A DNA stretch of 63,546 nt, filler included, from Kipferlia bialata (taxonomy: Eukaryota): assembly GCA_003568945.1 (NCBI GenBank). It is 7 parts of 6 records of this genome, joined end to end, with 100 filler letters (N's around TTAATTAATTAA, not from the genome) between each part and the next. Parts side by side here need not be neighbours in the genome. Positions count along the whole stretch, not along the records: positions 24,088 to 30,345 come from BDIP01000776.1; 6 more parts are not named here. One strand, given 5' to 3'. Position numbers and translations under genes: made by a program. This document shows, one piece after another, positions 4,001-46,147 of this stretch. Position 1 is the first letter of the stretch. Each line of letters starts with the position of its first letter. The notes below the pieces were generated by a model. It saw only the letters and a program-made list of their open reading frames with translations. It had not been told where the DNA came from and made no database searches.

Positions 4001-7000
4001 ACAAAAAAGACCCACCCCTTAACTTCCATATACATACACGCCCTCACCTTCCCTTCCTCCTTGAGGTGCTGCCTGACACCCACCCTCACAGCAGCGGCAT
4101 CTGTCTGCACTACATCGGCCTGGGGGTGAAGGGGGAGAGTGTGATAAGGGATATACTACTAGACTAGCGTGGGGTATAGTTTGGATAGGGTTATAGACTG
4201 GTGTGCCTCTCCTATACCTGCTTCTTGATGTGCATGTCAATCTCATGCCTCCTGGAGTCGTATCGGTCACGGGTCGCACCCTCAGTCACCTGGGGTGAGG
4301 CAGGATAAGGGAGTTCAGTGTAATGCATACACATACATACATATACATACACACATGCATACCCTGAGTGTCTCTGTGAGGTCTATGTCTGCTGCTCCGT
4401 CCTGTCCACCAATCAGGCCAGGGTACAGGTCATCCCCCACCACACTCTCCCCTTGGTCCATGGACATGTCAAGGGAGGGGTGGGCACGGGAGGGGGTGTC
4501 ACGAGACATGCTGGGGGTGAGGGGGGGGGGAGAGAGAGAGAGAGGTACCATGTGGTGACCTGGTCAGAGTGGAATTAGCGAATTAAGTATCAGACGAATG
4601 TAGTAAGCCGCCGTACGCTGTGTCTGCTCTCGACCTAGGTGTACGAGGTGTTCTAGGGGTACGGGCACCAGGGGACGAAGGGGTTCTCCTAGGGTCAGAG
4701 ATCCACTCAGAGGAGACTGCCGGTATCCAGTTGAATACGGAGACATATATACACATGTAGATCTATCTCTTCCTACCTCGGCTCCAGAGGTGTGTCTATG
4801 TCAATGTCCATCTCGAAGGGATCTCCGGCATAGGGGGTGGGGGAACGGTGGCGGTTCTTGAGCCTTAGGGTAAGAGGATCACATTGCAAATACTGTAACA
4901 CAACAATACACACTTACAATGTACTACATACCTCTCTGCCACGTCTGGGTCTGTCAGTGGGTATCTATACATTGTGTATATGTACTATATCAAAATATAT
5001 ATATAGTGTCTATACACATATAAACCCATCCTGACCTCTCTGCCACGTCTGGGTCTGTCATTGTATATCTATACATCATAGAGATATACGATATCAATCC
5101 ATATACTATACATTGCATACACATGTATACCTCTCTGCGACGTCTGGGTCTGTCATGGTGTCCATGATGGAGGCCGAGGGGGACTTGCCCAGGTTCATGC
5201 CCATCTGCTTGGCCAGGGGCTGGGTGCCTGGGTCAGAAGAAGTGTGTGTATACAATGACACTATGTAAATGGCAGAGATATGTGTCACTACTCCCCCTCA
5301 CCCTTGAGACTGGGCATGCTGAGTGTGATGTCTCGGTGGGGCATGCTCTTCTCACGCTGGGTGCCCTTGGTCACCAGGATGGCCTGGGGTATAAGGAGAC
5401 CTGACTATAATTATATATATATACGAATATACATACAAATGTATACCTGGTATGTCCCCCTGGCCTCTAGCTCTGCCTGGTCTCTCTTGCTCATGCGCTT
5501 GGGGTTGCCTGGCAGGTCAGATGGTATACATATGTGGAGATATTCATATATATATATATATATATATATATCGCCTGACGTGAGAGGGTGGTGGATGAAT
5601 ACAGGACACATGTATACACACAGAGACCGCCTCATGTCAGTACCTGTGCCACTCCCAGTGCTGAGCCCCCTCTGCACAGCGTGTCTCTGCTGGGGGGTCA
5701 GAGACGGGTATGATGAGTGTCTATACTGTGCAAGAAGAGAAGTGGTAGTGCTACTTATAGGTAACCACTCGGCAAGGGTATGTATGTATAGAGTGAGAAG
5801 TACCTGCACTCCCTGCAGCCTAGTGTTGAGTCTGACTGCTGCCCCTTCCTCAGGGGTCACACTCACCACACTATCCTGTCTCGTGTCATCTCCCTCCTCA
5901 CCCTCCCCATCTCGGGACAGGGGCCGCAGGTGGGGCTGGTGTCAGACACTGTAGGACAAGCACCTGAATGCAGAATGGACATATGTATCATGTGGACACA
6001 TACCGGCAGAGCAGGCAGCCTCTGGGGTCCCCCCCTCCCCCTCTTGTCGATGGCTATCCTCTGGTGGTCATGTTTCACCGACAGGGGCTGGGGGAGAGAC
6101 GTGGCAGGGCGGGACCTGCAGTGAGTATCTTAGAGAGAGGGAGAGAGAGTGTGTGCCGCACCTGTCCCTTGTGAATGGCAGGTTGTACAGGAATATCCGC
6201 CTTGCAAAGGCCCTGGCCAGGAACCCTCTGATGTGTCTCTGCAACACTAGGGAGGCACACACACGCAGGATCTGAGGTGGTTAGAGAGAGATAGAGGAGT
6301 GTGCTACTGATTCCGACAGTGTAGGGTGATATTCACGTATCCATACCTCTGTGTCCGTTGCTATCTCTGGGTCTGCCTGTTGGGCATAGAAGTGCAGGGC
6401 CCGCATCCCATTGCCTGGCGGTGAGAGGGGGGGGACTGAAGTATGGGAGTGTAAGATGGGGTATCTGAATACACATGCAAAATCACCCGTACCTATCCCC
6501 TGTCCCCTTCTGAGCCACCTGGAACTGTCCCTGGGGGTGAGGGGGTGAGGCAGTATAGGGAAATGTACATACATACAATGCACCCACCTAGTTGACAGTA
6601 CCAGCAGTGCCGCCCTGTGTATGGCCTCCACCCATGTGTCAAACTCAACGGCATAGTACGTGTCCAGTAGCTTGTTGTCCTTGAGGATGCCCCCTGCCCA
6701 GAGGGGGAAGTCCTCGGTGGTGATACGGCGGATGACTGGGGGGTGAGAGGAGAGGGGAACAGAGAGAGACACTAACCATCTCTACTCCCTATACCTGTCT
6801 TGTGTGACATGAGCATCAGCATGTGCTTGGGGTTACGCGGTGCCAGGGATATGTCTCTGGCAACCTGGCAGTCAGACATAGGGATACAATTATGTATAGC
6901 GCAAATATCCATACCATATGTATATATACTATGCATAACCACCCCACCTCCGGAGTCATGTTGTACAGGGTGTCTGATCTAGTCATCCCTCTTGGCCTCT

Positions 7001-24149: not shown

Positions 24150-25077
24150 TCTGATGTCATCCAGCATGACAAGGGGGGACTGCACTCTGGTGTGAGTCAT
24201 AGACACTATTACTATATATATATATAGAGAGAGAGAGAGAGATTATATAGTGATGTCATCCAGCATGACAAGGGGGAACTGGACCCTGAGGTTAGGGAAC
24301 AGGATATAATATGGGTATAAGCATCTCTAAACACTGTTGTATATGATGTACTATTAGTGTATATAGTTGTTAGTCTGATGTCATCCAGCATGACAAGGGG
24401 GCTCTGCACTCTGGTGTGAGCCATAGACACTATATATATGTATACAAATGCAGATACATACCATGGTATATATACATATATACCTGTCTCCCTCCTCCCA
24501 TGCCATGTCCCCATCTAAGCCACTATATATATGTATACGATGCACATACTAAACACAGATATATTCATATAAACACTATATGCATAGTATATACCTATCT
24601 CCTTCTTCCCATGCCATGTCCCCGTCTATTCCCACTGTGGTATAAGCCTGGTGGGCAGAGGGGGACCTGGTATGAGTATGGTTCTGATACATACACATAT
24701 GTGTGTATATAGGAGAGGAGGGACAGAGAGAGGATGTATGCCCACTGCGGTATAGGCCTGGTGGGCAGAGGGGGACCTAATGTTAGAGGGAGAGAGAGAA
24801 AGGGAGAGAGAGAAAAGGGAAGGGCCTGGGCAGAGGGGGACCTGGGAAAAGAATATATACAGATAGAGAGAGGATTAGTACACATAAGGTACTATACATA
24901 TCATATATTGAGAGAGAGAGGGGGATAGGCCTCGTGCGCAGAGGGTACCATGAATGAGCTTTGTGTTTGGAGAGAGAGAGAGAGAGCACTGGATCATCAT
25001 ATGGATCGGGTGTGGAAGCCATAGAAGGAGAGAGAGTGATACACACCTGTCTTCATTAGGCATAAGGAATGTATATG

Positions 25078-25133
<56 letters not shown>

Positions 25134-25325
25134 TACACACCTGTCTTCAAGGGGGTCGGGATTGGTGTTCAAGTTTGCGAGACCTGGGGTGAGACACAAA
25201 CGGAGAAGAGAGAGAGAAAGGGTTTGTGTGTGAGAGAGAACGACAACCAATGAGGAGAGAGACATCTAGACCCAAATCACTTAACAGAGTGACGCTCTAT
25301 CCCTACCTAGCATTTGTCTGAGTGC

Positions 25326-25364
<39 letters not shown>

Positions 25365-25523
25365 CATGTATATATACACTATACCCTACCTAGCATCTGC
25401 CTCAGTGCCTTGGCCCTCTGGGTGTGCCTCTCCCTCTCTCTCTCTCTATATGTATACATATATATACATACTACATACCATACCCCTACCTAGCATCTGT
25501 CTCAGTGCCTTGGCCCTCTGGGT

Positions 25524-25562
<39 letters not shown>

Positions 25563-26114
25563 CATATATGTATATATATATACCACATACCTAGCATCTG
25601 TCTCAGTGCCTTGGCCCTCTGGGTGTGCCTCTTGCCAGCAGAGGCCCTGAGGATAAGTATGTTTCATATATATATATATACATCTATATGTGTGTGTACA
25701 TATAATGCACATACACACATCAGAGGCCCTGCTAACTCCTATTCCTATCTCTTTATGCATTGAGCATATACACACTGTGTACATACCTCTGAAACCTCTT
25801 CTTAGGTAGACTGGGCATGGTCTGCTACACATATCATATATATACTACCAGTACGTGTATCCATACATTCACTGATAACACAGTTCTTACAGTAATATTA
25901 CTTCTCTGCATAGTGTGTATACCTCTGGAATCTCTCTTCTTTGGCAGACTGGGCATGGTCTACATCAAATATATATATACACACTATATACATATCTATA
26001 TACATATATATATATACATAACTATATATACCTCTGGAACCTCTTCTTTGGCAGACTGGGCATGGTCTTGCTGAAGCCTCTGCCCTGCCTGGGGGTGGGG
26101 GTAATACTATACAC

Positions 26115-26152
<38 letters not shown>

Positions 26153-29100
26153 ATATGCTAGTATTGTGTATAGAGACAATACACATTGACAAACTGAAGC
26201 CTCTGCCCTGCCTGGGGGTAGGGGGAATACTATACACATACATGTATATATATGTTCATATATATACATATATATATATATATACTAGGCCTAGTAGTGT
26301 GTATAGAGACAATACTCATACACTAACTGAAACCTGCCCTGCCTGGGGTCAACAAAGTATATATTCATACAACATATCCAATATTGTGATTTCACTCTGT
26401 ATTAGTCACTGTAACCATACCTCCCATATGACACTGCCATGTCCCTGGTCCTCTCCATAGGTATACACTATACATACCATACATACTATCTGTACATACT
26501 ATCACATACACAATAGAGTACTTATTATATATACACTGTATGCACTACCTCCCATATGACACTGCCATGTCTCTGGTCCTCTCCCTTGTATCCCTAGTGG
26601 CCAGGGCCCTGAGGGTTAGAAAAGAGAAATAAATACATCAATACAGTATAATAAATAATAGCCAAAGAATATGAGAGAGAGAGAGAGAAGAAGGTGAGAG
26701 ACTCTCCCTTGTATCCCGGGTGGCCAGGGCCCTGAGGGGTTAGGTATAATTAGTTATAGTGATAGTGACAGAGAGAGAGAGAATGACACTCCCTTGTGTC
26801 CGTGGTGGCTTATGCCTTAGGGTAAGGGGTACCAGAAAAATATACGTATAGACATATATCATTGTACAATGTGTATCTGGATGTTACATTGCCATACCTT
26901 GTGAATCTGGGTGCACCCCCATACACATATTTACATATATATATACCTACAATGTATATATACACCACACTATATATACAATACTAATACTCCATACACT
27001 GTGTAGTATATTTACATGACACATATACACCCTATACCTTGTGAATGATGACAGCATGGACTGGGTGGGTGCACCCTCATATACCTCNNNNNNNNNNNNN
27101 NNNNNNNNNNNNNNNNNNNNNNNNNNNNNNNNNNNNNNNNNNNNNNNNNNNNNNNNNNNNNNNNNNNNNNNNNNNNNNNNNNNNNNNNNNNNNNNNNNNN
27201 NNNNNNNNNNNNNNNNNNNNNNNNNNNNNNNNNNNNNNNNNNNNNNNNNNNNNNNNNNNNNNNNNNNNNNNNNNNNNNNNNNNNNNNNNNNNNNNNNNNN
27301 NNNNNNNNNNNNNNNNNNNNNNNNNNNNTACCCAATATACCTTGTGAATGATGACAGCATGGACTGGGTGGGTGCACCCTCATCCCTCACAGTGCCAGGG
27401 ATGGAACACATCTGGAGTGTCAGACAGATATATATATACATATATATGAATGGTGATATAGATATATACATATCTGGGGGCAGTGCCAGGGATGGAACAC
27501 ATCTAGGGGTGAGAGAGGTGCATATCAAGAAGCATATATACTATATTTATACCACATACTATATGTAGATGTGCATACTCATCTGGAGTGTCAGACTGGG
27601 GAGTATATTAGCATATATACTACATTCTCATATAAACATATATCACTAGAGGCAGTGCCAGGGATGGAGCACATATGATAGTGGGAGTCTATGCATAGTA
27701 ATACAATGTGAGACACAATACCTGGTATGATCGACGTGTGGCCCAGCTCAATTCGTTTCTGGAGGTGAGGAGGTAAGGAAAGAGAGACAGAGAAGAAGAA
27801 ATGAACAAAAACTAAACAGAGAGGGTAGTTTTGTGCTGAACGTAGATTCGACGGTATTAGGGAGGTAAAGAAAGAGAGAGAGAGGGAGAGAATACCTCAG
27901 TGTTGTCATTATGTCAGGTGGGTACTCAAACACTGGTCTCCACTCTGCCCTGCTGCCAGTCTCAACTGGGATAAAAGGGTGTAGAGAGAGAGAGAAAGGG
28001 TGTAGAGGGAGAGAGAGAAATAATATATCGCTATTTAGTATCGATAAGACACTGGTCTCCACTCTGCCCTGCTGCCAGTCTCAACTGGATGGTAAAAGGG
28101 TGTAGGGGGAGAGAGGGGGGTAGGGAGAGAGATAGATACTAAAACATACACACTAAACTTACCTCCTGTGCCAGCCGATGACTGCATGCCAAAGACGGTG
28201 CCGCCTGGGGGTGAATAAGGGTGAAGATAGGGGGAGAGAGAGAGAGAGACATGCCAAAGACAGTGCTGCCTGGGGGTGAATAAGGGTCTAGATGAAGAGA
28301 GAGAGAGAGATATGTATATATGATACACATACCCTGTTCCTCATCGAAGTATGCCCCACCCCACATGCCTAACTGCTGGTTGGCCTGGGTATTAAGGGTG
28401 TAGGAGGAGAGAGAGAGAGAGACCAACGTCCATGAGGCAGTGACAATAAGGGTATAGACAGAGAGAGAGACAGAGAGAGAGAGACAGAGAGAGAGAAAAA
28501 GAGAGATTCACTAACCTCCATGTGGGCCAGAGTGCCAGCCATGCCCACATTGCATATGGTGGCACCTGGGAATAAGGGGCTAGAGGGAGAGAGAAACTCA
28601 GGGAGAGAGAGACTACGTGTGTGTGTGTGTTTATGCCAACATAGGTGGTGAAAAGGATGAAAGGGAGAGAGTACCTCCAGGTGATCCATCTATGTTTAGA
28701 AATATGGGGCTAGAAAGATAGAGAGAGAGAGAGAGAGAGTACCTCCTGGGGATCCATCTGGGTACAGACTCTGGGACATGCCTGGGAATGAGGGAGATTT
28801 ATATATGTATATATATATTTATTTACACCAGTGACTGGTGACCAGTCACATCCAATTCATACTTGTGCGTATGTGTGCATATGATTACATTGTTGTGAAA
28901 GGAACTATATACCTTGACGCTCATCCGGCTGTGGTGCCTGGGGCGCTGATACATGTTACTATAAACACTATATATGATATTGATATATTATATTTAGTAT
29001 ACACTATACATATAAATATATACATTAATGTCATACCTTGACACTCATCTGGCTGAGGGGCCTGCGGCGCCGATATAGAAACCTGGGGGTGAATGATATA

Positions 29101-29207
29101 TATATATATAAATATATATCTATATGGCATTGCGGTCATTTGTGATCATTGTATATCGGAAATACAATTGTGGGAACGTTGTCCCCAGCAGTCTGATTCT
29201 GACCAAT

Positions 29208-29242
<35 letters not shown>

Positions 29243-29550
29243 CTTCTACTAACCTATACACTTATATACTGTATACCTTGTATACAATTGCAGGGGGGAA
29301 CGTTGTCCCCAGCAGTCTGATTCTGACCAAGAGCTCTCTCTCTCTCTCTCTCTCCCTCTGTCTCGATATGCCTCATACATATATATATACTGCACATTAT
29401 ACACAATGGCAGGTGGGAACGTTGTGCCTAGCAGTCTGATTCTGACCAATATCTCTTTCTGTACTATTGTATATATATATGTATACTATATACCTTGTAT
29501 ACAATTGCGGGTGGGAACGTTGTGCCTAGCAGTCTGATTCTGACCAATAG

Positions 29551-29582
<32 letters not shown>

Positions 29583-30032
29583 ATACTTCTACTACCTATA
29601 CACATATATACTGAATACCTTATATACAATGGCAGGTGGGAATGTTGTCCCCAGCAGTCTGATTCTGACCAATATCCCTTTCTGTACTATTGTATATATA
29701 TATATGTATACTATATACCTTGTACACAATAGCAGGAGGGAACGTTGTGCCTAGCAGTCTGATTCTGACCAATCTCTCTCTCTCTCTCTCTCTCTCTATA
29801 CTTCTATCAACCTATACACATACATATTGTATACCTTATACACTATAGCAGGGGGGAACGTTGTCCCTAGCAGTCTGATTCTGACCAATCTCTCTCTCTC
29901 TCTCTCTCTCTCTATACTATTATATACATGCATTATATACCTTATACACTATGGCAGGTGGGAACGTTGTCCCCAGCAGTCTGATCCTGACCAATAGCTC
30001 CTGGACAGCCCAGTCAATGCAGTCAGCAGCAG
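24150..30032 (-). CDS. Unknown protein encoded by 13 or more short exons (about 37-92 nt) in echo-filled introns; both ends off contig
   Basis: Consecutive exons join in frame: AAADCIDWAVQELLVRIRLLGTTFPPAIVYK|VSISAPQAPQPDECQ|GMSQSLYPDGSPG|GATICNVGMAGTLAHME|ANQQLGMWGGAYFDEEQ|GGTVFGMQSSAGTG|VETGSRAEWRPVFEYPPDIMTTLR|NELSWATRRSYQ|MCSIPG... Confidence 0.7.
29165..29940 (-). repeat. Tandem array of 7 partial copies of the 3' half of exon 29941-30032 (most with the donor), separated by (TA)n/(GA)n
   Basis: Core GGGAACGTTGT(C/G)CC(C/T)AGCAGTCTGATTCTGACCAA at about 29172, 29296, 29415, 29513, 29638, 29738 and 29854. Confidence 0.95.
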
Positions 30033-31037
30033 CTGAGGGTAAAAGGGGTGTAGAGGGAGAGAGAAAAGGGTGTAGAGAGAGAGAGAGAGAGAGCTCCTGG
30101 ACAGCCCAGTCAATGCAGTCAGCAGCAGCTGATGGTAAGAAGGGGTATAGATAAAGAGGGAGGGAGAAAGTGGTGTAGAGAGAGAGATATATAGAGAGAG
30201 GAGAGCTGTGTCAATGCAGTCAGTGGTAGTATTCGTATAATGAACACTGCATACACCACTATATATGCCAGGGTCAATCACTAGCATAGTAAATCTCTCT
30301 CCCTCAAAGCCCCCCCCCCCCCCCCCCCCACCCCCCCCCCCTTTTNNNNNNNNNNNNNNNNNNNNNNNNNNNNNNNNNNNNNNNNNNNNTTAATTAATTA
30401 ANNNNNNNNNNNNNNNNNNNNNNNNNNNNNNNNNNNNNNNNNNNNGTGCCCCATCCCACCACCCCCCCACCCCCCCCCCCCCCCACCTCTATGTCCTCAT
30501 GTGCATATGACACCATCCTCACAAGGGCGTTCTCCATCCAAGGGGCAATGCGGTTGCCTGAGGGGAGAATCTATCTAAACATCACATACCCATCAACACT
30601 GGGGCACCAACCATCCACCCTATGACCCACACCCACACCCACCCATGTAGGACTGAATACCCGTGTGCTGATGCTTGTCCATAGCAAGGGTCCCACTGAT
30701 ACTGACAGTGTGTATTAATAGTGGAACCCAAGGAGAAGCCGTCGAGGTGATCGTTTGTTACTTGATCATTCCCCGGCACCCTTAGATCTACTCTCAAAGT
30801 GACTCAGTCACTGTGACTGTGGCTTTCTGCCTGTATCGCAGGTACACACCAACATCTAGGAAGAAGGCACCTACCCTCGGCCTCTGAATAGACAGGGACC
30901 CCCATTCAAACAACCAACACATAATTGACACTATCTATACACTGATATACAAACTCGAAGACGATAAACGAAAACATAGAAAGACTGCCTCCCACCGAAA
31001 TGGATATCAGGACTCAGGGCAATGTCCTAACAATGTA

Positions 31038-36788: not shown

Positions 36789-37141
36789 CTGGGGTAAGGG
36801 GGGGGGGGGGGGGGGGGGGCGCCCAAAAAAAAAATATACTNNNNNNNNNNNNNNNNNNNNNNNNNNNNNNNNNNNNNNNNNNNNTTAATTAATTAANNNN
36901 NNNNNNNNNNNNNNNNNNNNNNNNNNNNNNNNNNNNNNNNCTTGTGGGAGAGGGCCTTCCCCCCCCCCCCCCCCCCCGCTTCCCTTGTCAGGCAATAGCT
37001 AGATCTGCTCTTTGGTACACCGCTGCTTCACTTACATACTATCACATATATATTTGTGTCAGTATGTAGGATATGACATGTAGGGGACACAAAGAATATA
37101 GAGAGGAATATGCTGTGCCATACATAGTTATGACATGTGTA

Positions 37142-38328
37142 CGAGTCCAGAATTTTGAAAGGGTCCAGTTTTTCGAGACTCAATCTTAATTCCGGTCAAA
37201 GAACTAAAAGTCGAGTGTTTAATTCTTAATGTCGACGCCAGTATGAGGAGTAAGTTTTGAGACCTTGAATTATGGTCTACTTTATTGGTTAGGATTTAGC
37301 TGGTTTTAGACGATGCTTCTATCATTATCTAGTTTATCCAGCGGTTTTTTTTCTAATTTCTCGCTCTGATTCCAATATTAGTCCGCCTAGGGACGAAGAA
37401 GACAATATTCGGTCTCTTTAGGAGTGTTTTGTATCTAACACAGTCTTGGTAACAGACCTATTGGGTACACCTACCACAACTTCAACAAGAACTTCATGAA
37501 GTTTTCACAAGAATTCATGTCAAGTTTGACAGCCTGATTCAGATCCTGAATCTGTGCCCAAAAAGGGTTCGTTCCGTTTCATTCTTTTTCTCTGCAATTG
37601 CAGACTGCAATCCATGAGACTCAGGACTTATTAATACGACTGGGCCTAGTAATATGGATAGACAATAATTATATTATTAGTCAAAGCCTCCTTCGAGATA
37701 GACATCGTAGAAACAAACTGAGACATTTATGCTGGGACGGCCAGGCTGGGACCCCCAAATAAGTGACTCTACTGAGCCTACTGAGAACAGCAGGCGTAGA
37801 CAGGGTCTGGATAAAAGTATTACTTTGGTTACATCGACTTTCCATGGAACTGTGAAACTCATCAGAGTAGCATAATATCAAGCAAGAGCAAATTATCAAA
37901 TACCTAATCATTATACTAGGCCTAGATCAAAGCCAAATACTACTAGTAAATCATAAAACTGGATGAAATAAGATCTGAGATATACTTGAAATGATTGCTG
38001 GAGAATAGACCCATTTACTTTTGTACTACTGATACTCCGCACTTTTGGTATACACTAAACAAGTCACTAATAGCATAGGGACCTTCAATACCCAATTACT
38101 TGTTGGCTTGATCTCCGACAGAATGTTGGTTTCAGAATTTGATATATTCAAATCGTACAGATTCCAATATTATCCTCCTACAACTAGTATAAGTATCAGT
38201 ATCAGTATCAGTATCAGTCATCGTCGACATTAACTAAAATGTCATTAAGAACTATACACTCGACTGTATTTTGACTGGAAAACTGAGATTGAGTTCGAAA
38301 AACTGGACCCTTACAAAATCTGTACTCA
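37142..38328. mobile_element. Non-autonomous Tc1/mariner-type element, about 1.19 kb, TA target duplication
   Basis: Imperfect TIRs of about 47 bp: CGAGTCCAGAATTTTGAAAGGGTCCAGTTTTTCGAGACTCAATCT vs reverse complement TGAGTACAGATTTTGTAAGGGTCCAGTTTTTCGAACTCAATCT. TA at 37140-41 and 38329-30. AT-rich interior without a long ORF. Confidence 0.8.
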
Positions 38329-38616
38329 TAGGGGAGCACGCAATGACCTCAGAATACTTTGTATGGCACTGCATATTCCTTGGCTACTCTCTAACTGGAG
38401 AGAGATGCCCACTGAACCAATTCTTTAGGAATAGATAACAGTATTTCATTTAGTGGGTCATTCAGAATCTAAATTTCAGGCAATTACTCGCTTTCTATAT
38501 TCAAACATCCGTCCGCCTAGGGACGATCAGACATGCGATGTCACAAGATTTCAGTGCTATTAATAAGTTGAGGAAAAACTCGTTGGCTCAAGTATTTATG
38601 TCTCAGTCACTTATAG

Positions 38617-41600
38617 TCACTTTCTAACACTCTTTACCATCTCCCTCAATGATACGTTCATCTCCAGTAGAATGCGATCCACATTCATACAATGAACGGC
38701 GGCCACAGCGGCTCGAGACAGGGGAACGGTGCAAATAGTGAGACCAAACGCATCCACTAGCCTGAGGAACGGAGGACCCTTCGCCTTGGATCCAGGGGAC
38801 TGAACAGCGGCAAGACATCTGTCACAAAGTGACACCACGGAAGCGTACTGGAGAGAACGCACATGTGTCATAATCCGATGGTATCGCACACCATCACCCA
38901 TCTGTTCATAGAGAGACAACCGGCTAAGACGCAGAGCAAGTGAGTATAAGGCTTCACATACAGCAATCGGACGCAAAATGGAGGGACGAGACCCAACCTT
39001 CCCCTGCTTGCAATACCCTGTGTGTGTGAACTGCAGGTCAGACAAAGCGTTGGAACCTGCACATGTACTGCTGAAAACACCGTGCTCCACAAGATACACC
39101 AAAACGTCATCCGGGCCTCGAGCAAGGCCAAGGGAGCTTCCGAAGGCAGCAATTCTTGTAAGGCGCAGTGCTGCCAATGGAGGAGACAGCGACATGAAGT
39201 CTTTACACCTAATGTTAAGAGAGGCAGTAGTCTGAGAGAGAGTACGATAAACTGATACTGATCCTGTTTCAGGATCATCCTGACACGTGACTACCTTGAA
39301 AGCAACTCGCTAGGAGGAAGGGCCGCAGGATACGATGCGCCAGTGAACAACGGAGATGCGTAGGCCAGGCGCACCAGTGTCACCTCACAGGGTGCATCAA
39401 CAGGACACCCTGGCATTGACTGTGCAACACATGATCGAGCAATCGTCTCATACGGGGACAATTGTCCACAGAACATGGCTGCCGGGTCGACGCAGAGAAG
39501 ACCTAGAAGTACCTGTATTTCGAGCTGTGACAGAGCCGGAATACGATCATCATATACCAATGCACCACTGGGACCATAACCAAGACCCAACCACGAAGCC
39601 GCCAGGAAGCTATGCTCCTCAACCAGCATCTGGCGTACAGAGGGCGGGGGAGTCGGCGGAAGGACGCCACTGTATTCACTCCTTGAGAGTGTTGGGGAAT
39701 CTTGCCCAGTTTTCACACAGACACCAACACCCTGGCCTGATGGAGAAAAGGCAAGAGGAAGATGACACGACCTCTCACCAGGTACAAAAGCCATAAGGCG
39801 GACCTTTGCAGTGGGAAACCTGGAAGACTTGGAATAGGATATCCCGCCTGCATGTCCGAGGCGTCCAAAGACATCAGCACAAGGTGGAAGCAAAGGATCT
39901 TGGTCCGGATGTACGTCGAGGGCAGCCCAAGGAGCCTTCTGCAATGAAACAACAGGTGAAGTGCGTCCCACAGCTGGTTCAGACTCTACCGTCCTGGATT
40001 CTGGAACAGACTCCCTCGGACTCTGCGTGATTTCAGGTGTGTCAGCACCTGATACCACTAACCAGCTATCAAGAGTCTGTACCATAAGACGAATCAATGC
40101 GGCCCCTGCAGCAAAAGAAGTGGCAACAACTGACCCACAGGAGGATACTACAATACCAAGTATGGCTTGCCGGACACGATATGTGTCAAACCAAACCGGC
40201 ACATAGAGGTTACCACCGTATATGTCAGCGCCGCTAGAATGGGAATCGTTCCTGGGCAGAGATGCTACAAGGGACTGGAGGTACACAACAGACACTCTTC
40301 CTCTACACACCCTGCCCAGAAACTCCAAAAAAGGGTTCAGCCTAAAGAGCCGACCAATGTCATTCACAACTGACATCGCTAGGGTCTCTCTAGCTTGCTC
40401 CCGTTTACTGGTCCGAACGGGGGCATCTCTCCCAGGAGGAATAGGCACAGAATCAATGGTGGACAAAGTCGCGGCTCCTGTAACCTGGTGCATGTAGGCT
40501 GCAGCCTTTGAGTATAACTGGTCTGATATGTACCCACGGAGGACAGAACGCAGGAATGAGCCAGAGCTAAATACTCGGACCATCACGCAAGTCGCCAGTC
40601 CGTAGGACACGAAACTCGGGCCAGAAACAGCAAATATGAGGTTGAGTACAACTAGACTGAGCCAGGCAATAGGATTGAGCACATTGCCAGATGCTAGAAG
40701 TGCGACAGCAACCCCTGGAGTGAGTGACAACTATAGTGATAGAACCATTGAATCAGACAGCATCACATACTGGACACACCTGCGAGAGCTCGCTTGTGGA
40801 CAGGCGTGTGGACAGCAACAGTGACTAGACCCACCCTAACGAAGGCAACAACCACACTAACAGCAAGGGCCAGTGTCGTCCGAGCATAGAACAAACCCCA
40901 TGACCGGGGACGAGGGCTGGGTCTGGGAATCATTGCAACAAGAGCTGATACAATCACAAGCAGACAGCTGCCCAGGGTGTGAGCCAACTCAAAGCCACAG
41001 AGAGTCTCTGCCTCAAAGAAGGAATCGGGCGCAATCGAGGTAGGATGTGGGAAAGACACCAGGAAGGCGATGTTCTGAGTCAGCATGCTGGGCGCCACTC
41101 GTAGAATGTCACTCTGAGAGGCGTAACGACAGAGACGGAACCCGTCTAGCAATCCATAGCGAGTCAGAGGTCCAGCCACTGCCAGAGAAAGAGAGAGGAC
41201 TCCAGATAGAAGCTGGGGAAGCGCCGCCAGTAGCAGAACGGGAACCCAGGTATGCACGGGATCTAGCATGAGTACCAGATAACTACGGTGCAGGGTCCTG
41301 CCGACAAGAAGGGTGAATGCCTCTGCTACGGCCAGCGCAATTACAACTCCCATGACCATCAGGCTGGCAACCACTCCGAGACAGTTAAACACCCATGTTA
41401 GTGCAATCAGAGGCAGTGTCACACAAATAGTGTGCAGTATATGGAGCGTGTTCTGCACAGTAGGACTCGGGTTACTCCCAAGAGGCAAGGGCGAAGGAGA
41501 TGACACTGAACCGGGGTGGGACGCAGACATGGAGTAAGATACTGAGGTCGAACAAGATGATGTTCTCTGGAACAACTCTGCAGGTCCGTCCTGCCCTTGA

Positions 41601-43807
41601 GACCCAGCCTCATCAACTACCATCACAGGGACTCTCACACACTGGTGACTACCATCAAGTTTCGTCTCTGGGCCAACATCCCCAGAGTACTCGAAGGGGT
41701 CTTCACCTGTCCTCGGTGGTTGCTCCATCCTGAGCCGGCGTTTCCGAGCACGACGCCTCTTAGCCAGGGACACCTTGGACTCGTTATACTCTGCACCCTC
41801 AGATAGGCGAGGTAACACTCGTGTCACGTCGCGAGGCGAAGATCTGTCTGGATCAGATGAGGGGGAATATCCAGGAGAAGGGGACATCGGGGAAAGTGGC
41901 CTCGGAGTCTCGTTCCTCGGAGAGCGCCGTTTGCTCTCAACATTGTTGCCATTACTTGCATGAATGCCTCTTGGATGGAAGAGTGGACATCCAGCTCTAA
42001 TACAATCCCTGGGTAAGAATTGTCCCTAAACCATCAAAAACCCCTCTCTTACAAGTATACACAAAAAGACAGACTCTTACCTCTCTCTACATATGCCAAG
42101 TCGAAGCCTCGCATCCACATTTCGAGGAACGGACCCCAGGGCTTGACGTACTAGCTCACGGTGAAACTCGGCATCTCCTACAATAGTAGCATCTCTGTCA
42201 TCCTGAATCAGCTCAGGGGTCTGGCGTTGAGAGAAGACGGGAGATTCAGTGGAACTCGGCTCTGGAAATACCGGAATTGCAGAGTGTCCCGAGGGCAGAG
42301 GTGAGGATGAAGGGGATGAGCTCAATATCAGCAGCACTGGAGGGTCCTCCTCCCCAGGTTTGTCAACAGAGTGAGAGGATTCAGATGCCCGGTCCTCCCT
42401 CTCCTCCCTGGAAACATCATTTTCTTCGAAAGACGGTTCCAACCCACACAGAACATGACTATCAAGTGACCCGCCGGAAACGGCCACTCTCTCAACATCG
42501 ATAGCACCTATGACACGTTCTATGGCAGGAGAAGCCTTCACCTGCTCTTCTTGACGACTGATCAGACGCATGGAAGCTGACTGAGCCTCGACATGGCCCT
42601 CAGCTGTTTGCTCCTGAGACCCATATACAGCCACAGTGTCAGACATATTGGATTGTTTTGATGGGCCCCAAAGGGAGCTGGGAAGAGACCCTTCTGGGGA
42701 ATCGTTGGCGACACGAGATACAGAAGATGACCTGACAGAGGCGTCACTTTCGGACTGAGACGCAATGTCAGGCAGTGGTGCAGAGTAAGTGTAGTGACTT
42801 CCTTGGTTCATGCAAGGACTGGTAGTGAAACAACCCTCAGCCCTCGTCATCCCGACTCTTCCATGCCCCACGTGAGAGGGATACAAGTCTCTCTCCGTGG
42901 CAACCCTGGAACTGGAACTATCTACCTTTGCCGGTGGGGTAGGGTGCAGCTCTCGTCCCGCAACAGACCCATCTCGGGAAAGGTGGGACCTGGGGACACT
43001 ATAGTCCCTATACCCATAATCAGGAATACCTGGAGAGTATTGATCACTGATATGGACTGGCATGTGGTATGGGATCTGCTGTCCCTGAGTTTGGTGGGGA
43101 GGAAACCCTGGATGCCTCACGTGCTGCTGTGCCGCGAATTGGCGAGAGTGCATTGAACCGGATTGCGGATACATGTGGTGACTTGGATGCAAGTGGTGCT
43201 GGGGAAGGGAGTGAGAGTGTCCATAGTGCTCTGGAATATGTACACTAGGATGTCCCTCGGTACCAGCATACGACCGTTGCATGTATCCACGAGGAGGTAA
43301 GTCTGGATACGGTACACCCATCCTTTCTCCTGGATACCTTGGTATGGTCTCCCGCGATCCACGAGTTCCCTGAGTATCCCACTCAGGATACAGCAGGTCT
43401 TGGTTGATCTGTTCCACCTCCCGAGTGGAAGCAGCAGAATGGGTATGGCGAGCTTCATAAAACCCATCGCCATAACTTGGAAGACGAGATACATGAGACC
43501 TCCTTTCACCAACTGAAGGAAGTGGTCTCGGGGGTGGCGCAGACTGGCGTGACACATCAACACTACTACGGCCGGAATGGCTCTCCGAGGGTACAAATGG
43601 ATTTGCAAGTTCGAGGTATGGATAGGAGGGCATGGGTGAGAAAGGATCTATGGGCAGGGCATTCCCAAAGAATGGGTCTCTCTCACTGGCTTCGCCCTCC
43701 GCGGTGCCAAAGAAAGGATCTCTGTCACCAGTCTCGGCTGCAGCATCGTCTTCGTTCAGAAAGGCGGGCAAAGACAGAGAGATGCTCTGAAAGAGGTTGT
43801 TCTCCAT
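38617..43807 (-). CDS. Large (about 1600 aa) unknown protein: disordered N-terminus, CCCH-type zinc finger, multiple TM helices, C-terminal globular region
   Basis: ORFs of 576, 374, 479 and 192 aa separated by short GT-AG introns. The first junction gives GICRERDCIRAGCPLFHP in frame with the next ORF. Hydrophobic segments at about 41450-40560. Last junction not fully resolved. Confidence 0.7.
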
Positions 43808-44297
43808 GTATTTCTGTCGCGATGATCTACCTACCAGTCTCCAACTGCCTGATTATCCCCTCACCAGAACTAGCCGTTCACTACGCCCAATTCAGCTCCC
43901 TAAAGCAATTCTGCTTTAGTTCAAAGAGTGGCACTGGACTGATACCGATTTCGAGACTTGTAACATAATTTCATTTAGTTATTATTTAGTAGATCAAATT
44001 AGACTAGGCCTACTATTCTCGTAAAACTGATGGTAATATTTGAGTTCTATGTGGTTCGGTGACTTTTGAACAGACAATCCGTTTTTAACCACACCTTATA
44101 TCATCTAGGCCTAATGAGAATTAGGCCCCGCTCCTGACTCATCCAATATTCATCACAATTTGAGTATATGAATCCAGTAATATCTTAGTAATTTAAGAAC
44201 TTTAGATTAACTATTTATAATTAGTATTAAGCTTAATACTGACACAGGCAATTCAGCTTAATACTGAGGACACAGAGCAATTCTCTTCACCATTAGT

Positions 44298-46147
44298 ATG
44301 GATGTGTCTGATGATCAAGCAAACGACCGTGTTGAGCATATTTTGAGGCGACTAGAGCCTCTTGCAGACCTTGCCAAGAACTGGGTAAGATATCGTTCAT
44401 TGGTTTGTTTGGCAATTCGATGGTTTGGGGCTGCACTCATCTATCAGGATATTGAAATCTCAGACTTGCTATCAGAGTTTCTCGAGACCACTCTCCACTA
44501 CACAGGCAGTTTCCATAGCGCTGCCAGTGTAGTGACCCGCAGTGCCAATGTATATGGGAAGAAGGTGGATGCTCTCTATGCTACAGCACTCAGCAGGGTC
44601 AAACAAGTGGCCGAGGACTCCAGGTAGATTCCTGATAACTTGATGGATAGTACCGCCATGTCTCCGTTTACAGTGCGAAGAAAATATATATGTATAACGT
44701 CAGGGACCCACGTTCAAAGTCAAGAGATTCATGCAGAGATCAGCGTCTTGGGTGTGATTTGTGTGGGGTAATGGTTTCGCTCGAAGCAACTGTGAGGAAC
44801 CCTGCTGTGGTTGATTCTTCCGCCACGACGACGAGAGACTATCATACTATCAGTCGTCCAGCCTCTCTCGAGTCTTGCCCCCTATCAGCATTAGCCACTG
44901 CAGAGGGAGCATGGGTACTGGAGCATTGGGAGCAGGGGTCTCTTGAAGATGCCCTCCGAGGCATGGGAGGGGCAAGACCCAGCGTTTCATCTACTCCAGG
45001 ACTCACTCCTCGTACCCAGAGACCTAATTCCCTGGGGGGTGCTACACCTAGGGCTCCTCTCGGGCGCCTTGGAATGAGTGCGGATCTGGGTTCTATGCAG
45101 GACTTTGACCTCGGCATCCCAGATACGTTCAATGACATGCAGGGTGATGTGTTGGGCGTTGAGACAGGGTTCGGTTCGGTAGAGGATCCTGTGGGTAGTG
45201 TTGGTGGAGATAGAAGTGACTGGTTGCCTCCCCTAATCCGCAAGGACACGCTTTTGGTTTTGAGTGGTGAGGGTCAGAGACCAGTGCCGCCCCAGTTCGT
45301 AAGATCAAAGGGGAGACCTGTCGTGTCACGACAAGTTTGCTTCTCTTCTATCATCAGCTGTGGCACATCGTCCAGACTTTCTGGGTTCGATCCCTTGGTC
45401 ACAGCCGCTGTGTATGGATGCTCTTCATATACGCCCCTTGTATCAACTGTGCAGAAGCTTAGATCTAGTTCTATGTGCAGGATAAGGCAAAGTCGAGTCA
45501 TTCCCGACCAGCTCCAGTCTGACGAGACAGATATATACTCTCCTGCATCAGTGTATGTTGGAGGTGGTGCTCTCGGAACTGAATCATCGGTCCAGATGGA
45601 CGATGTTTCTGGTTCTGGATCCGATTGGTTGGGAGACTCAGATGAGGGTGGGGGAGGTGACTTGTCCTTGGATATGGTTGAAGATGTTTCATACTCATCC
45701 ATTCATTCTCGCGTTCTCTCAAGGTACGCTGCAGTTCGTCGAGCTGCAAAAGCGCAATCTGGAGAGTCAGCCTCATTCGCCCACTGGCGGGATACAATAG
45801 CCGCTCATGTACTGGAGGTTAGGTCTTGGCCAGTGTATAAGGTTGACCATTCGACCAACACCATTCTACAGCATATGAGACGCTCTGGGATGGGGAAGGA
45901 GAACGGAACAGGGCTGAAGCGGAAGCGATGCTTGGATGCCGAGCCGTCTCCAGTGCTTTTTCAGGATGTGGTAGCCAGCCACTCCGCTTCTGGGGCAGCG
46001 GCTGCAATCCGGTGTCTGTTTACTGTTCTCCAGATGGCTAATGACAATATTGTTGAGATATTGGGAACAGGTAGTACTCTCTCTTTGAGATTGGCTGATG
46101 GTTCTGAGGTCCCAGACGACAATTCTGTACTTGACGATGGGATATGA
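44298..46147 (+). CDS. NCAPH2: Condensin II kleisin subunit CAP-H2
   Basis: LEPLADLAKNW|DIEISDLLSEFLE...FHSAASVVTRSANVYGKKVDALY and C-terminal WRDTI...FQDVV...RCLFTVLQMANDNIVEI match both CAP-H2 conserved domains. Introns 44385-44447 and 44624-44703. Confidence 0.88.

Follow-up and report, generated by a model that had tools for sequence, protein, structure and literature searches.

Introns in a 63,546-nt stretch of DNA from the free-living fornicate Kipferlia bialata (GenBank assembly GCA_003568945.1; hereafter the window) carry partial copies of the exons that they adjoin, and these copies differ from the live exons mostly at synonymous sites. We consider it fairly probable that such half-exons are untranslated remains of other working alleles which break repair left behind in the introns and which exchange limited to exons has reshuffled. 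The genome of this protist measures 51 Mb and holds 124,912 GU-AG introns (PMC5874029). The window consists of seven contigs with N-linker-N spacers between them, of which contig 2 encodes a run of 121 residues matching a Kipferlia bialata peptidase C1A at 100% identity, and the main locus is contig 3 (24088-30345, minus strand), in which a gene of 14 exons (A-N, 37-92 nt, AG/GT ends) was modelled. Across its 264 codons a single one of the three frames is open, and the gene extends upstream past the contig end, exon A being the first exon present. For the encoded protein, exon A gave no match at E ≤ 10, exons A, I, and N gave no Pfam family, and other searches returned two unrelated repeat open reading frames (ORFs) only, with no relative found. 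The last two exon letters ahead of the donor are AG in 13 of the 14 exons, which amounts to a very strong bias towards proto-splice sites.

The copy search used 37 exons from five genes, each aligned to its own two flanking introns with a score threshold of 12. The set comprised the 14 exons of contig 3, nine of a kinesin gene (frame fixed by Pfam PF00225), seven of a ubiquitin-conjugating enzyme gene (PF00179), and four and three from two more genes; the window contains many exons besides, which lie outside this set. Exon-intron matches numbered 42, compared with 1.2 expected from exons aligned against introns of other genes, and at least one copy was found for 18 of the 37 exons (10/14 in contig 3). 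All 26 downstream matches are 3′ parts and all 16 upstream matches are 5′ parts, which bears out in 42/42 cases the polarity described in an initial annotation of the locus, with donor-side copies downstream and acceptor-side copies upstream. When the window was compared with itself without regard to frame, 98 repeat pairs lay within 1 kb, versus 7 and 5 in equally wide bands at a distance, and the clear exon-like pairs were confined to contigs 1, 3, and 6. The same annotation held that nearly every exon of the contig-3 gene is copied; this is correct for the ten exons over threshold, and can be extended to exon M, whose copy is sub-threshold, and to a fifteenth exon (O) with three copies, but exons D, E, and H have none. 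The exon O copies are excluded from the 42-copy and synonymous counts. Copies also extend past the range first annotated, into an array at 29170-29894 and into contigs 1 and 6. Contigs 2, 4, 5, and 7 were without exon-like repeat pairs in the frame-blind scan, and copies cluster in genes with long introns rich in TA/GA repeats.

What distinguishes the copies is the kind of difference that separates them from the exons. Synonymous changes make up 82 of 111 copy-versus-exon differences (74%; codon positions 1/2/3 = 21/8/82), and in wrong-frame controls the same 111 differences score 8 and 14. By subset the share is 32/43 in exons B-N, 35/44 in exon A, and 15/24 in the other four genes, and it is 56/82 when each variant is counted once. 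Two nulls were applied, a neutral copy (26% synonymous) and an exon accepting silent changes only, paired with a copy changing everywhere (41%). Against the second, with a transition/transversion weight of 2, P is 4e-12 overall, 8e-6 for exons B-N, and 0.009 for the other genes; under transitions-only weighting the overall P is still 3e-7, the observed differences being 56 transitions and 55 transversions. Thirteen of the 16 exons with differences lie above this null, and the silent changes are balanced in GC direction (22 GC-to-AT, 21 AT-to-GC). The synonymous excess suggested in the initial annotation is thus upheld on full tabulation against the neutral-copy model (32/43 in its range and 82/111 overall versus 26%), and the five codon comparisons on which it was based are all present as written: exon B versus 28913-28951 (five synonymous, one non-synonymous), exon C versus 28675-28700 (TCC/TCA, CCA/CCT), exon J versus 26702-26731 (ACT/ACC, AGG/CGG), exon K versus 25787-25823 (three synonymous), and exon N versus 24484-24517 (four synonymous).

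These figures bear directly on the possibility that the copies are ordinary same-allele tandem duplicates, subject to neutral decay as the silent sites of the live exon drift. Such duplicates would account for the polarity, and they fit the acceptor side (11/23 synonymous) as well as near-identical copies such as 28049-28084 and 24251. However, they predict 41% synonymous differences rather than 74%, and for the live exon alone to produce 74% would require an exon silent rate seven times the intron neutral rate. Nor can they yield the variation among the copies themselves, where 28/40 variants are synonymous with the live exon omitted (P = 1e-4 versus the 41% null), and the intron flanks, described below, are not copied. 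For donor-side copies (71/88 synonymous, P = 3e-13) this explanation was rejected, and taken as a whole it is highly improbable; the synonymous bias does not arise from the live exon alone. The junction-spanning tandem duplication originally invoked therefore stands in part: polarity, bias, and the spanning of junctions are real, and plain one-allele duplication fails (26-41% predicted versus 74%; flank identity 0.61-0.64). The ratio of non-synonymous to synonymous differences per site (pN/pS) of copies versus exons is 0.125, the proxy for pS obtained from the copies is 0.22-0.34, and divergence shows no steady rise with distance from the live exon.

The clearest case in the window is a seven-copy array of exon A, which adjoins the originally annotated range from outside. 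Its 11 variable sites over exon nt 38-91 are all third positions, two of them with three states, and mean pS is 0.34 with zero amino-acid change; variants of the copies lie, among others, at exon A nt 59, 62, 74, 80, 83, 86, and 89. The seven full-length versions are all different haplotypes, sites switch back and forth between the same two bases along the units, and 6/10 informative site pairs fail the four-gamete test, a result that recurrent mutation could also produce. The spacers between units are homologous and 0.20 divergent, and their divergence does not correlate with that of the exon parts (rho 0.0); units 2 and 4 have 0/36 spacer mismatches yet four synonymous differences. This uncoupling, together with silent-only variation, suggests that exon parts were exchanged apart from the spacers, and from sources without amino-acid change. 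The array is probably a recombinant mosaic.

Two further explanations meet their evidence here. If the new exon were a highly error-prone copy of the sister, with only silent outcomes surviving, no second allele would be required and silent-only differences between new exon and old halves would follow; but the copied intron should then be hit equally, in conflict with units 2 and 4, and sites would not be expected to flip between the same two bases along the array, which leaves this idea scarcely credible. The nearest rival to the relic-allele reading places the donors in a small number of gene sets that had diverged long ago (hybrid parents, homeologs, or paralogs); their exons would have been copied in and shuffled before loss of the extra set. 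A pS of 0.22-0.34 is indeed very high for a single population, intron flanks are near unrelated, and one copy carries a serine switch from TCC to AGC: in the exon O copy at 24372-24410 the serine codon reads AGC, against TCC in both the RNA and the sister copy, so that two bases differ and serine is retained. On the other hand, the two three-state sites and the seven different haplotypes of the array need more than two sources or long shuffling, and no second gene copy was found at exon N in the DNA contigs. We therefore hold an origin from diverged gene sets to be unlikely.

As far as short-read contigs show, the copies are genuine DNA and not an artefact. The DNA run X1 contains 0.94 of the sampled 31-mers of the window, and one 881-nt X1 contig, at depth 415, is collinear with 24254-24686 and 24818-24958 with 0 differences; other X1 contigs carry further copies in place at depth 347-400, also with 0 differences. 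The comparison begins at the left end of contig 3 and stops shortly beyond exon K (19/30 bins covered). X1 is possibly the source data of the window itself, and assembler error is thus excluded better than library error. An assembly artefact, in which reads of different haplotypes were joined at microsatellites, could draw on that circumstance, on the short repeat-bounded contig, and on a 241-N gap adjoining one identical copy; it is contradicted by the collinear contigs and the shared 31-mers, and mis-joins would give neither strict polarity nor decayed copies. Decay had been noted from the start and is present as described, with a TAA at 26810-26812 in the copy ending near 26789 and a 2-nt insertion in 25923-25961. 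We judge an artefact extremely improbable.

Evidence from RNA is provided by a single contig of X12 (same sample), which is spliced and joins the 3′ end of exon J, exons K, L, M, and N, and an exon O outside the window. In it, exon N is exact (0 differences), exon L has exactly the exon length, and the exon K part is 3 letters off the copy at 25787. From exon J to O it contains no intronic copy, and its joints are the exons' own sites, with the proviso that contigs drop rare forms. Compared by hand with the RNA letters, the exon O copies show one replacement in 24251 and two silent changes common to 24150 and 24372.

The splice sites of the copies are well preserved. GT is kept in 22/26 donor copies, with scores equal to those of real donors (5.9 versus 5.8), and AG in 12/16 acceptor copies, as might be expected if the copies were used as coding sequence through alternative or trans-splicing and kept by direct selection. 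Yet each copy bears one splice site, with GT near the broken end in 2/16 and YAG in 9/26; use of the copy's site would leave an open frame in 3/40 and an insert that is a multiple of three in 10/40 (the 2 copies adjoining the N gap excluded); indels, a stop, or loss of GT are found in several copies; and the RNA contig bypasses all of them. Coding use is accordingly very unlikely, and judging from their sequence the copies are not coding. The copy donors are full-strength yet skipped in the RNA contig, and the spliceosome thus bypasses good inner sites, for which recognition across the exon would be the likely explanation. Recursive splicing by way of the AG that ends a copy is a further, speculative possibility.

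Both the flanks and the broken ends of the copies are informative as to their origin. Exon parts are 0.91 (donor) and 0.96 (acceptor) identical to the live exon, whereas the splice-side intron flanks reach an identity of 0.61 (donor) and 0.64 (acceptor) to the live exon's flank, compared with 0.56 and 0.59 between the flanks of different exons; 6/35 flanks exceed the 95th percentile of the control and 1/35 reaches 0.85. Copies of one exon mostly have a common broken end. In the two-sided exons A, I, J, K, and N, the distance from the end of the 5′ copy to the start of the 3′ copy is 1, 6, 4, 2, and 2 nt, so that the halves are complementary in 5/5 (P = 0.0015; 0.002 and 0.006 with nulls from observed lengths). 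This layout resembles an old exon cut in two at a single point, with a complete exon and its own splice sites set between the parts. The median spacing of units is 104 nt, and introns with copies have a median of 260 nt (18 introns) versus 89 nt for those without (14 introns). GA or CT runs adjoin several broken ends, where they may represent microhomology with a template allele outside the data. The idea that a dedicated enzyme adds (CT)n(AT)n tails to broken ends was dropped because GA runs, judged by eye, precede donor copies in exons A and L only, both of which offer GAG/AGAG in their own sequence; the idea that the break point marks a lost ancestral intron was rejected, there being no GT/AG at that point.

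These features can be arranged into a two-step scenario. In the first step, an exon would break at a point p, and the broken end would restart synthesis in simple-repeat intron sequence beside the exon on another gene copy; the whole exon with both splice sites would then be copied and rejoined, leaving the old halves in the introns on either side. One-sided copies may result where only one end restarts or where a half was lost later, and the strict polarity would be due to the fact that only products with halves inside introns leave a working gene. In the second step, exons would act as the main homology islands between alleles, and misaligned exchange or conversion between live exons and relics would add copies with the same p and repeatedly overwrite relics with sequence from working alleles. 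The first template could be either the homolog or the sister chromatid, since the second step would yield the bias in both cases. Divergence between relic and present exon likely took place when the two were still functional alleles of a highly diverse population. With a pN/pS of about 0.12, a relic would have spent only about one tenth of its history since the split from the live exon in the silent state, and synonymous diversity would be about 0.2-0.3.

Related processes have been reported separately, in papers none of which concerns the present intronic half-exon pattern. Metamonads are described as being without Ku-type end joining, and in all Fornicata examined Rad51A has been lost and two Dmc1 paralogs are retained (PMC8516963). 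Joints with mismatches are stabilised by Dmc1 (PMC6719624), and templated insertions occur at breaks without Ku or ligase 4 (PMC2943611). In the hypervariable fungus Schizophyllum commune, crossovers lie in exons (PMC4209137) and synonymous diversity reaches 0.20 (PMC4576712).

Several results weigh against the relic-allele reading. The acceptor side alone (11/23 synonymous, P = 0.24) does not beat the exon-only null, and the other four genes alone (15/24), under transitions only, give P = 0.075. The share drops to 98/159 (P = 3e-7) when alignments are made to reach the splice end, and to 120/230 overall (P = 0.001) and 50/106 in exons B-N (P = 0.13, not significant) when two unaligned columns are added per copy. 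At least one copy, 24251, resembles a same-allele duplicate with one replacement change. The break-point test is limited to five exons of one gene, 13/18 copied exons being one-sided, and by eye no motif was found at the break points. Unit length varies little (83 to 128 nt in 34/42 copies) and corresponds to roughly one half of an exon together with most of an ordinary short intron, a regularity that the scenario does not predict. The alleles themselves are unobserved: the X1 DNA contigs compared contain no second allele, including no second gene copy at exon N, but contigs drop variants, and the absence of other letters neither shows nor excludes heterozygosity. No documentation of sex and ploidy in Kipferlia bialata was present in the papers found.

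The exons of the contig-3 gene and all copies are listed in Table 1. In the ubiquitin-conjugating enzyme gene, a further acceptor-side copy at 55500-55540, with a 12-nt insertion and apparently three silent changes, is sub-threshold and uncounted.

Table 1. Positions of the contig-3 exons and of intronic half-exon copies in the window
Feature	Position	Strand	Basis and remarks
Exon A (first present)	29941..30032	-	AG/GT ends, open frame
Acceptor-side copy of exon A nt 1-37	30092..30128	-	Identical; exon-intron alignment
Second acceptor-side copy of exon A	30200-30223	-	Decayed; alignment
Seven-copy donor-side array of exon A (nt 33/37-92) with intron starts	29170..29894	-	Synonymous-variant mosaic
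Exon B	29037..29082	-	Gene model
Donor-side copy of exon B	28913..28951	-	5 synonymous, 1 non-synonymous; alignment
Exon C	28743..28781	-	Gene model
Donor-side copy of exon C	28675..28700	-	3 synonymous, 3 non-synonymous (the latter at ragged far end)
Exon D	28516-28565	-	No copy found
Exon E	28333-28384	-	No copy found
Exon F	28163-28204	-	
Acceptor-side copy of exon F	28250-28269	-	1 synonymous, 1 non-synonymous
Exon G	27896-27965	-	
Acceptor-side copy of exon G	28049-28084	-	Identical
Exon H	27722..27758	-	No copy found
Exon I	27341-27411	-	
Acceptor-side copies of exon I	27653-27674, 27481-27502	-	
Donor-side copy of exon I	27038-27080	-	Adjoins 241-N gap; least secure
Donor-side copy of exon I	26898-26922	-	Internal deletion
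Exon J	26549-26608	-	
Acceptor-side copies of exon J	26789-26816, 26702-26731	-	TAA in the first
Donor-side copy of exon J	26421-26456	-	
Exon K	26032-26088	-	
Acceptor-side copy of exon K	26342	-	2-nt deletion, sub-threshold
Acceptor-side copy of exon K	26194-26211	-	
Donor-side copies of exon K	25923-25961, 25787-25823	-	2-nt insertion in the first
Exon L	25591-25646	-	
Acceptor-side copy of exon L	25728	-	Short, sub-threshold
Donor-side copies of exon L	25490-25531, 25390-25431, 25307-25327	-	
Exon M	25141-25183	-	
Donor-side copy of exon M	25047-25055	-	9 nt, sub-threshold
Exon N	24595-24666	-	
Acceptor-side copies of exon N	24922-24945, 24827-24841, 24737-24776	-	
Donor-side copy of exon N	24484-24517	-	
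Acceptor-side copies of exon O	24372-24410, 24251-24285, 24150-24186	-	Live form beyond contig end; RNA contig continues into sequence absent from window
Five copies in kinesin gene introns	58899-58932, 58610-58647, 58501-58536, 58163-58188, 57497-57515	-	9 synonymous, 4 non-synonymous
Four copies at Gly/Met-rich gene end	51903, 52007, 52111, 52502	+	Alignment
One copy in ubiquitin-conjugating enzyme gene	55118-55140	+	Alignment
Two donor-side copies of contig 1 exon 5131-5227	4932..5064	-	3 synonymous, 0 non-synonymous; frame from open reading only

Elsewhere in the window, contig 5 holds four consecutive long intron-free ORFs on the minus strand (36941-44200; 230-591 aa), with no Pfam match, adjoining an AT-rich stretch with a 144-nt inverted repeat of 75% identity (37104-37231 / 38243-38380). 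This block looks unlike host genes and is possibly a mobile element. An ORF at 44651-46147 gives a weak match to the C-terminus of condensin II subunit H2 (PF16858, E 0.008, below the curated cut-off).

Untranslated sequence should lack protein-level constraint, yet here the constraint is strong, and it is seen in several genes unrelated to one another. Should the copies be displaced alleles, one genome would record many alleles of the same exon, and diversity, per-codon constraint, and recombination would become measurable without population data or documented sex. The copies would also be a visible trace of break repair in a group said to have neither Ku joining nor Rad51A, and would explain concretely how introns lengthen (median 89 to 260 nt). 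The skipped full-strength donors form a natural test of site choice by the spliceosome, and such copies can mislead gene prediction and read mapping. A bolder proposal, which we put forward tentatively and would not be surprised to see fail, is that this protist, with Dmc1 only and neither Ku nor Rad51, replaces its exons in situ as a matter of routine, with a whole exon of another allele nested in the break, cast-off halves cycling with live exons, and thousands of introns serving as an archive of past alleles. If true, one assembly would yield the synonymous diversity of the species (about 0.2-0.3, among the highest known), a free-living fornicate would have yielded direct evidence of genetic exchange, and replacement would be a main engine of intron growth in this genome.

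We found no description of intronic half-exon copies in Kipferlia or elsewhere in the literature covered, outside which lie most subscription papers and supplements; on introns, the accessible part of the genome paper gives the number and the GU-AG ends only (PMC5874029). Comparison can nevertheless be made with several known systems. Neutral junction-spanning tandem duplicates likewise place an exon end with its splice site in the neighbouring intron, with the polarity seen in 42/42 copies; the present copies differ in their silent share (82/111, not 26-41%), uncopied flanks, complementary halves, and mosaic array. Mutually exclusive exon clusters such as Dscam consist of tandem whole-exon copies with both splice sites, which are expressed and have mostly silent differences, whereas the copies here are halves with one splice site and are skipped in the RNA contig. 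Introns can also be gained through tandem genomic duplication of AGGT-containing exon sequence (PMC3443670), which shares with our case duplicated exon sequence inside an intron, and nearly all exons here end in AG; however, no new intron is formed, the copy keeps the old splice site, and broken ends are neither AGGT nor splice sites. On these tests the copies belong to none of the three: alternative exon clusters, intron gain by AGGT duplication, or neutral junction duplicates.

Two further parallels come from recombination and repair. Schizophyllum commune, whose synonymous diversity is close to 0.2 and whose exchange falls mainly within conserved exons (PMC4209137, PMC4576712), would be similar in both respects; in that fungus exchange is equal and was measured from crosses and populations, whereas here it would be read from the relics of one genome, with unequal products kept in introns. 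End joining of the synthesis-dependent, microhomology-mediated kind (SD-MMEJ), or alternative end joining, has in common the insertion of nearby-copied sequence between two broken ends (PMC2943611), and the corresponding feature, complementary halves around a whole exon, is seen in 5/5 two-sided exons, 13/18 exons being one-sided. Compared with SD-MMEJ as described there, the insert would be 150-250 nt long, comprise a whole exon with both splice sites, be repeated over time, and be read from silent differences. Taken together, the system works like templated break repair combined with exon-focused recombination, each of which is already known, and it is the consequence that is unusual.

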